Positions 55,202-55,290 of a stretch of DNA of 64,000 nt are shown here, piece after piece (positions within the stretch are counted from its first letter, which is position 1; each line of letters starts with the position of its first letter). The notes beneath the pieces were generated by a model. It searched no databases. It was not told the DNA's origin and was given only the letters and a program-made list of their open reading frames with translations. The DNA is from Escherichia coli (GTDB lineage Bacteria > Pseudomonadota > Gammaproteobacteria > Enterobacterales > Enterobacteriaceae), in assembly GCF_013315695.1 (NCBI RefSeq), contig NZ_CP054353.1. One strand, given 5' to 3'. The position numbers were made by a program, and so were the translations under genes.

Positions 55202-55290
55202 ACGGATCCTTGACGGATCCAGCCGCCACGGGGGCCGGAAGGGCAAAAAGTCGTTCAAAAAAATTGTGCAAATTTGTGCACTATTGTGCA
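55202..55290. promoter_or_regulatory. Phased short repeats in the cos-proximal region (2x ACGGATCC, 3x TTGTGCA at 10-bp spacing)
   Basis: acggatcc at 55202 and 55214; ttgtgca at 55264, 55274 and 55284. Confidence 0.4.

Follow-up and report, generated by a model that had tools for sequence, protein, structure and literature searches.

TTGTGCA repeats at the edge of the cos site of a P88-like prophage in Escherichia coli: a putative terminase-recognition array

The window analysed here, a 64-kb stretch of Escherichia coli DNA, holds a P88-like (Xuanwuvirus) prophage of the P2 family, in an orientation that is inverted compared to the P2 map. The nearest named phages, Chuche, phiSM, P88 and P88_4B11, are all P88-like members of Xuanwuvirus, and identity to the P2 proteins amounts to 36% for gpM, 48% for gpP and 49% for gpQ. 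The cognate terminase genes are both present. The homologue of gpM, the small terminase subunit and a candidate reader of the repeats described below, lies on the minus strand at 49161-49958 (PF05944, E = 6.5e-37). It is followed by the capsid and scaffold genes (50008-52101, minus strand), which were taken from the list of open reading frames only and assigned by position, as in P2. The homologue of gpP, the large terminase subunit and presumed nuclease, is found on the plus strand at 52088-53842 (PF03237, PF17289 and an N-terminal helix-turn-helix domain, PF06056), and is directly adjoined by the gene for the portal protein gpQ (53842-54891, plus strand; PF04860). On the other side of the region of interest, cargo occupies 55450-57763, consisting of a gene for a DUF3800 protein (55450-56256, plus strand; PF12686) and then a pair coding for a ParM/StbA-type, actin-like partition protein and its Plasmid_stab_B partner (56488-57763, minus strand; PF06406, PF21523 and PF10784), after which replication gene A (gpA) is reached (57840-60713, minus strand; PF05840). 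Since P88_4B11 and Chuche have the partition pair in their annotation as well, the DUF3800 gene alone looks like variable cargo. The repeats that are the subject of this study were placed by an earlier note on this DNA between the portal gene and the cargo locus, and this is where they lie. A position between the portal and the cargo, with gpA beyond, is that of cos in the P2 family, where the site is located between the portal side and the non-essential region preceding gene A (PMC9122126).

Three copies of TTGTGCA are present on the plus strand at 55264-55270, 55274-55280 and 55284-55290, exactly 10 bp apart from start to start, as the earlier note had it. A fourth copy, further called R1, is found on the same strand at 55192-55198, and the triplet (R2, R3 and R4) begins exactly 72 bp downstream of it. 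The total number of TTGTGCA copies in the window is ordinary (14, compared to 16.6 expected), so it is their clustering that constitutes the signal. The array is the only equally spaced triplet of any 7-mer at 9-12 bp steps in the whole window, and not a single such triplet occurred in 100 first-order Markov random sequences. The triplet is therefore real and far above chance. The second repeat that had been reported, ACGGATCC, is indeed present in two copies on the plus strand (55202-55209 and 55213-55220, each containing a GATC, at 55205-55208 and 55216-55219 respectively); their spacing is 11 bp from start to start, with a 3-bp gap, instead of the 12 bp given before. Pairs of 8-mers at 8-15 bp spacing start at 19 positions of the window compared to 9.3 +/- 4.0 in random sequence, and this pair is real but unremarkable by itself.

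The repeats are part of a conserved block of about 144 bp, which was delimited by BLAST alignments to 55148-55291 and which represents the whole conserved cos block of the P88-like prophage. At its portal side, MAFFT alignment reveals a homologue of the 19-nt cohesive end of P2, 186 and P4, CGGGCTGTTCCCCGGCACCTG, at 55149-55169 (boundaries within 2 nt), which is the inferred cleavage region. In the window this homologue reads CCCCGG at 55158-55163, one base shorter than the CCCCCGT of most relatives, and the combination of this variant with the window's left flank (CAGACCCCAAATTGC) was found only in contigs of one type (L070). Between the cohesive-end homologue and R1 lies a dyad element (55168-55202), made up of an inverted repeat with arms at 55168-55182 and 55188-55202 and a T-run, within which a perfect palindrome, AAAAAACG/CGTTTTTT, is located at 55177-55192. 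R1 itself has its core GTGCA at 55194-55198 and aligns with TTTTAATGCA of P2, 186 and P4. The ACGGATCC pair comes next and is followed by a GC-rich spacer that ends in an A-run, CAAAAAAA (spacer 55221-55263, A-run 55256-55263), and the distal triplet then closes the block, R4 being its right-hand edge with the cargo hotspot beginning directly after it. The interval to which attention was originally drawn, 55202-55290, thus contains the triplet and the ACGGATCC pair but leaves out R1, at 55192, and the cohesive-end homologue at about 55149-55169.

Alignment with the cos regions of P2 and 186, which had been proposed as a check, shows the same layout of four copies beside the annotated cohesive ends of these phages, and likewise in P4. 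The database records of all three begin at their annotated 19-nt 5' cohesive ends. Going outward from the portal side, P2, 186 and P4 present the cohesive end, about 24 bp consisting of a GC-rich dyad and TTTT, (A)ATGCA, 72 bp, and three further ATGCA copies at offsets of +0, +10 and +22 in P2 and +0, +10 and +23 in 186 and P4. The window presents the cohesive-end homologue, 26 bp with the dyad and the T-run, GTGCA, 72 bp, and GTGCA copies at +0, +10 and +20. There are hence two classes of array, GTGCA spaced 10/10, as in the window phage, and ATGCA spaced 10/13 (10/12 in P2). When 13 sequences of the two classes are aligned with MAFFT, the invariant positions include CCCCG.C.C in the C-run of the cohesive end, the TTTT, the TGCA of R1 and the TGC of R2 and R3, and some relatives of the GTGCA class carry CCCCGCCTCGCC, identical to P2. 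Moreover, the base that follows a copy is common to both classes (C after R1 and R3, A after R2), which indicates that the arrays are homologous rather than convergent. The homology of the window block extends over the 19-nt cohesive end and the surrounding core of about 55 bp. For P2 and P4 a '55-bp core' of cos was defined by Ziermann and Calendar (1990; as cited in PMC3931495 and PMC5694545), and a core cos signal is common to both (PMC9122126). Judged by these alignments, the repeats of the window are a homologue of the cos site of P2, 186 and P4, a cos with accessory repeats being already a known kind of site, and the expectation of the earlier note that they lie in the cos region is borne out. 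In the open literature we found no description of a family-wide RTGCA array of one plus three copies, of the fixed 72-bp gap or of the two classes, and no paper that presents RTGCA repeats as terminase sites; a search with the motif strings returned unrelated matches only, and the papers on P2/P4 cosmids, P2-like phages and packaging structures that we found hold no base-level dissection beyond the '55-bp core'. Novelty is not claimed here.

The block is widespread. With a 171-bp BLAST query of the cos block, matches were obtained in 1146 of 5426 complete E. coli genomes, and most alignments span window positions 55148 to 55290-55292, stopping at the last base of R4. To this boundary we applied a set of 155 GTGCA-class loci, mostly viral contigs with an exact triplet and some selected by their portal protein, of which 107 have the ACGGATCC-type spacer. 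Among these 107, the 40 nt inside cos fall into 2 clusters at 70% identity and the 40 nt directly after R4 into at least 23 unrelated clusters, which makes the triplet the exact edge of the conserved element against the variable cargo hotspot. Such a variable cargo and defence hotspot beside the cos of P2-like phages has been described before (Rousset et al. 2022, PMC9122126). By sequence comparison the triplet is the outer edge of the prophage cos site and as such an expected part of a P2-family virus.

This boundary also bears on the other role that had been suggested for the repeats, namely regulation of the adjacent DUF3800 gene by an operator or activator array. The triplet does lie on the same strand, 160 bp upstream of the DUF3800 start, and in P2 the third ATGCA copy is close to the annotated old-tin transcript starts. 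However, the triplet is kept while its neighbours change, with at least 23 unrelated right flanks in the 107 loci with the same cos, P4 and a satellite-like island (see below) have the same array beside quite different genes, and a fixed distance of 72 bp to a copy beside the cohesive-end sequence would go unexplained. A search for sigma-70-like promoters in 54850-55500 yielded none, and with this, and with the variable flanks, an operator array that is inherited together with the neighbouring gene and overlaps its promoter was rejected. We regard a regulatory function as very improbable, and this part of the earlier proposal was abandoned.

The spacing of the four copies was subsequently assessed in 80 P2-family viral contigs, fetched via the portal protein at identities down to 50%. 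The 3 kb downstream of the portal were scanned without bias for 5-mers present three times at steps of 9-13 bp, together with an upstream copy 60-89 bp away. Such an upstream copy showed up in 57 of the 80 loci, each time at 72 bp; the triplets were always spaced 10/10 in the GTGCA class and always 10/13 in the ATGCA class. A four-site score of at least 18 out of 20 was reached by 182 loci, compared to a maximum of 16 in shuffled loci and of 14 elsewhere in the window. In 22 representatives sharing less than 85% identity, the information content peaks at the C-run of the cohesive-end homologue, at the T-run with R1, and at R2 to R4, is low through most of the spacer and drops to zero right after R4. 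R1 is the most conserved stretch of the whole block and the T-run columns are highly conserved too. Exact TTGTGCA copies are found in 39 (R2), 31 (R3) and 28 (R4) of 42 portal-selected loci of the GTGCA class. The sequence between R1 and R2 is poorly conserved, with a length fixed at 72 bp wherever the upstream copy was detected, and an invariant length in near-random sequence suggests a geometric constraint.

One lineage (L158-L174), with portal proteins 70-72% identical to that of the window, retains a well-conserved cohesive-end homologue and R1 next to distal copies that are degenerate, with triplets such as TTGTGCG / TTGTGCG / TTATGCA or poorer ones; here gpM has diverged further (62-64%) than the N-terminus of gpP (79-83%). 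These triplets imply either that exact copies are not always needed or that the prophages are decaying, and they could reflect a relaxed specificity, a different specificity or such decay. Five further loci retrieved by an exact-pattern scan (L050, L054, L074, L108 and L119) contain TTGTGCA-like units three or more times at 10-bp steps, in an iteron-like fashion (e.g. tandem units of TTTTGTGCAG in L050). They occur in unrelated contexts, are not homologous to the cos block and were set aside. The tolerance of degenerate copies in some lineages, together with the resemblance between neighbouring 10-bp units of the window (AAAATTGTGC / AAATTTGTGC), is what might be expected if the repeats were a functionless, neutral relic of a local 10-bp tandem duplication. 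We consider this extremely improbable: no columns are better conserved than those of the core bases, in lineages with almost completely diverged spacers, and the layout is common to phages with portal proteins that are only about 50% identical and to satellites.

The ACGGATCC pair behaves differently from lineage to lineage. Of the 42 GTGCA-class loci selected by portal, 24 have both copies, and these are mainly the ones nearest to P88. Among 44 representatives of the two classes, 19 have a GATC at +11/12 from R1, and some ATGCA-class lineages likewise show another one at +22. In several lineages of both classes the 72-bp spacer holds two GATC sites at a distance of 10-11 bp, located at +11/+22, +12/+22 or +57/+68 from R1 depending on the lineage (loci L183, L186, L187, L190, L191, L194, L196 and L197). 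The spacers of P2, 186 and P4 contain no GATC. As a general recognition element ACGGATCC was rejected, being lineage-specific, statistically unremarkable and without a GATC counterpart in these three spacers. A Dam- or SeqA-related role of the GATC pair is speculative.

The block is furthermore shared with elements that do not encode a terminase. Five contigs (L020, L037, L085, L112 and L211) carry an integrase, a primase, an ogr/Delta-like protein and a capsid gene, without a portal or terminase gene. In the first four, the only substantial homology to the window is a cos block of 144-149 bp (window 55148-55291) with the 72/10/10 spacing intact; another match of 27-207 nt with a low score, near 61.4-61.6 kb, is present in three of these four. 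The fifth covers an island of about 12.5 kb in E. coli TOE17 (NZ_CP069093.1, about 1502200-1514500; L211:700-13000), situated at tRNA-Arg between yfdC and dsdC. Its genes code for an integrase, an HTH protein, an Icd-like protein, a Toprim primase, an ogr/Delta-like zinc finger, a 236-aa protein and MazEF, and it contains a GTGCA-class cos block and a gene for a P2-family major capsid protein. This capsid protein of 423 aa has an N-terminal extension and shares 34-36% identity with the gpN proteins of both P2 and the window phage; for the 236-aa protein encoded beside it no family match was obtained. The cos-flanking region of the island is present in at least 53 E. coli genomes. The tRNA-Arg island may represent a satellite of the P4 type with a capsid gene of its own; apart from a short match with a low score, the cos block, with its 72/10/10 spacing intact, is all that it has in common with the window, a parallel to P4 and P2. 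We infer that these satellites depend on a P88-type helper. Another satellite lineage may be represented by a locus (L015:10480-10700) with a P4-type integrase (37% identity) and no portal, in which a GTGCA triplet is preceded by TTTTTTGTGCA at 72 bp and the cohesive-end-like sequence (CTCCCCACCCCCTCGCG) is much more divergent. The occurrence of the block in terminase-less satellites is the strongest argument that the whole of it, triplet included, is what the terminase needs.

The TTGTGCA copies thus probably form a terminase-recognition array within the cos site of this P88-like, P2-family prophage. Packaging needs gpM and gpP in P2 (PMC7552001). In the mechanism that we propose, the terminase, composed of the small subunit gpM and the large subunit gpP, would bind the four RTGCA copies as one array, in which R1 would place the nuclease at the cohesive-end sequence about 25 bp away and the distal triplet, some seven helical turns from R1 and with its copies one turn apart, would add cooperative binding, probably via bending or wrapping of the DNA. 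The terminase bound to the array would then mark the DNA for cutting and packaging, and satellites using a P88-type helper would be expected to carry the same array. The G or A in the repeats, together with the 10/10 or 10/13 spacing, may separate P88-type from P2-type packaging specificity. Transduction of P2/P4 cosmids rose more than 1000-fold when the packaging signal around the 55-bp core was supplied as a longer fragment (PMC9594776), which fits a functional site longer than this core, and the array, if it acts as proposed, is a possible reason for this gain.

The earlier note had proposed a protein site such as one for recognition by the small terminase subunit. A role in packaging is favoured by the layout, the conservation and the satellites, and the small subunit would be its presumed binder. 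gpM would be the usual choice as reader of the repeats, but the helix-turn-helix domain at the N-terminus of gpP (PF06056 Terminase_5, HTH_23; residues 11-67, window 52118-52288), in a region 51% identical to P2 over residues 12-92, could read them instead. Covariation was tried as an arbiter between the two and rejected: the repeat class co-segregates with gpM, gpP and gpQ alike, a pattern confounded by phylogeny, and no mosaic phage that separates the repeat class from the packaging genes was found. The identity profiles of gpM and gpP between the window and P2 do not discriminate between the candidate readers either. Two other binding sites were considered and discarded. The IHF consensus WATCAANNNNTTR, allowing up to 1 mismatch, has no match in 55100-55300, the nearest lying at 55385, which disposes of an IHF site between the repeats or in the spacer, and an Ogr/Delta-type TGT-N12-ACA site in the triplet amounts to a partial match by eye only, with none in the ATGCA class.

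The array could also belong to cos and yet serve another step than the initial docking of terminase, either the packaging end, in the manner of the terminal cut at lambda cosQ, or by being read by a host protein or as a DNA shape. Seen from the cohesive end, the four copies are all located opposite to the portal and terminase genes, on what in P2 is the right end of the mature chromosome, and in lambda the docking site cosB is at the end that is packaged first. Besides, the A-run and T-run tracts that flank the copies could bend DNA, and paired GATC sites recur in the spacer. On the other hand, short repeats centred on TGCA on one helical face look like protein sites, an IHF consensus is lacking and the spacers of P2, 186 and P4 are without GATC. 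We think this alternative unlikely, and return to the array as a candidate docking site of the terminase.

Where the DNA would be cut is a related question. On balance, homology places the cut at the cohesive-end homologue, at about 55149-55169. The linear GenBank record LR595891 (P88_4B11) does not agree with this position. It is an exact circular permutation, with no bases lost or duplicated, that is opened inside the GC-rich spacer (LR595891.1 position 37100|1, window 55245|55246), at a distance of some 78 bp from the cohesive-end homologue and with the triplet starting 18 bp further on. This opening conflicts with the homology-based cut and may point to cleavage somewhere between R1 and the triplet. 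The portal-side end would in that case carry R1 and the ACGGATCC pair, the other end would have the triplet 18 bp from its terminus, and the two repeat groups would flank the cut in a P1-pac-like way. The chance of a random opening inside the 144-bp block of this 37.1-kb genome is about 0.4%, and in LR595887, a P2-like sister record from that project, the start coincides exactly with the known P2 cohesive end. Conversely, conservation is strong at 55149-55198, where the counterpart of the P2 55-bp core with the C-run of its cohesive end lies, and only moderate around 55245, and we found no paper that mentions P88_4B11 or how the start of LR595891 was chosen. BLAST searches of the phage collection returned no record opening in the cos block other than LR595891 and its RefSeq copy. 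A P88-type cut at about 55245|55246 is thus conceivable though doubtful, and the cohesive-end homologue is retained as the putative cut site. With either position the repeats are less than 100 bp from the cut and belong to cos.

The block, present in about 1 in 5 complete genomes, decides which DNA is packaged by a very common group of E. coli prophages, and by this also which satellites and engineered cosmids get mobilised. Should the array act as proposed, the functional site would run from the cohesive-end sequence through the last TTGTGCA and provide a precise right boundary of the hotspot of Rousset et al. (2022), and the specificity could perhaps be switched between P2-type and P88-type by G to A changes in the four sites and 3 bp of spacing. 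Tentatively, a more far-reaching interpretation can be formulated, which we hold for possible rather than probable: that the specificity determinant is the four-site RTGCA array with its fixed 72-bp gap, occurring in at least two classes, beyond the '55-bp core' alone; that the helper phages of E. coli and their satellites fall into separate packaging networks according to these classes, each array class having its own satellites, including a P4-like island with its own P2-family capsid gene; that cleavage in the P88 class may have shifted to the spacer; and that packaging may be linked to Dam methylation through the recurrent GATC pairs, with sites one helical turn apart. None of this alters the general picture of cos packaging.

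When compared with known packaging sites, the array resembles lambda cosB, in which the R3-I1-R2-R1 sites are bound by the small subunit gpNu1 together with IHF, in that several short repeats lie by the nicking site, would recruit the terminase via a DNA-binding subunit and are separated by a spacer that allows bending. It differs from cosB in that there is no sequence similarity, the repeats are 5-7 bp instead of 16 bp long, no IHF consensus is present, the array is on the side away from the terminase genes and gpM (PF05944) is not of the gpNu1 family. The pac site of P1, a phage with headful packaging, consists of two clusters (4 + 3) of TGATCA/G hexamers that flank the cut and is Dam-dependent. 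With this site the window shares two groups of very short repeats (1 + 3, compared to 4 + 3 in P1) at about 70-90 bp from each other and the presence of GATC. In P1, however, the GATC is inside the repeat, whereas in the window it is confined to the lineage-specific ACGGATCC pair, outside the RTGCA copies; the mark of a Dam-regulated site of the P1 pac type, GATC inside the recognition repeats and conserved in relatives, was not found, and P1 also differs by its headful mode. Compared to the cos sites of P2, 186 and P4, the window has GTGCA instead of ATGCA as core, a triplet spaced 10/10 instead of 10/13 (10/12 in P2), 26 bp instead of 24 between the cohesive-end homologue and R1, and a ACGGATCC pair in its spacer, and one GenBank record suggests another cut position. 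It has in common with these sites the location just past the portal, the cohesive-end homology, the dyad with its T-run, the RTGCA copies arranged as one, 72 bp and three, the adjoining cargo and defence hotspot, and the sharing of the site by satellites.
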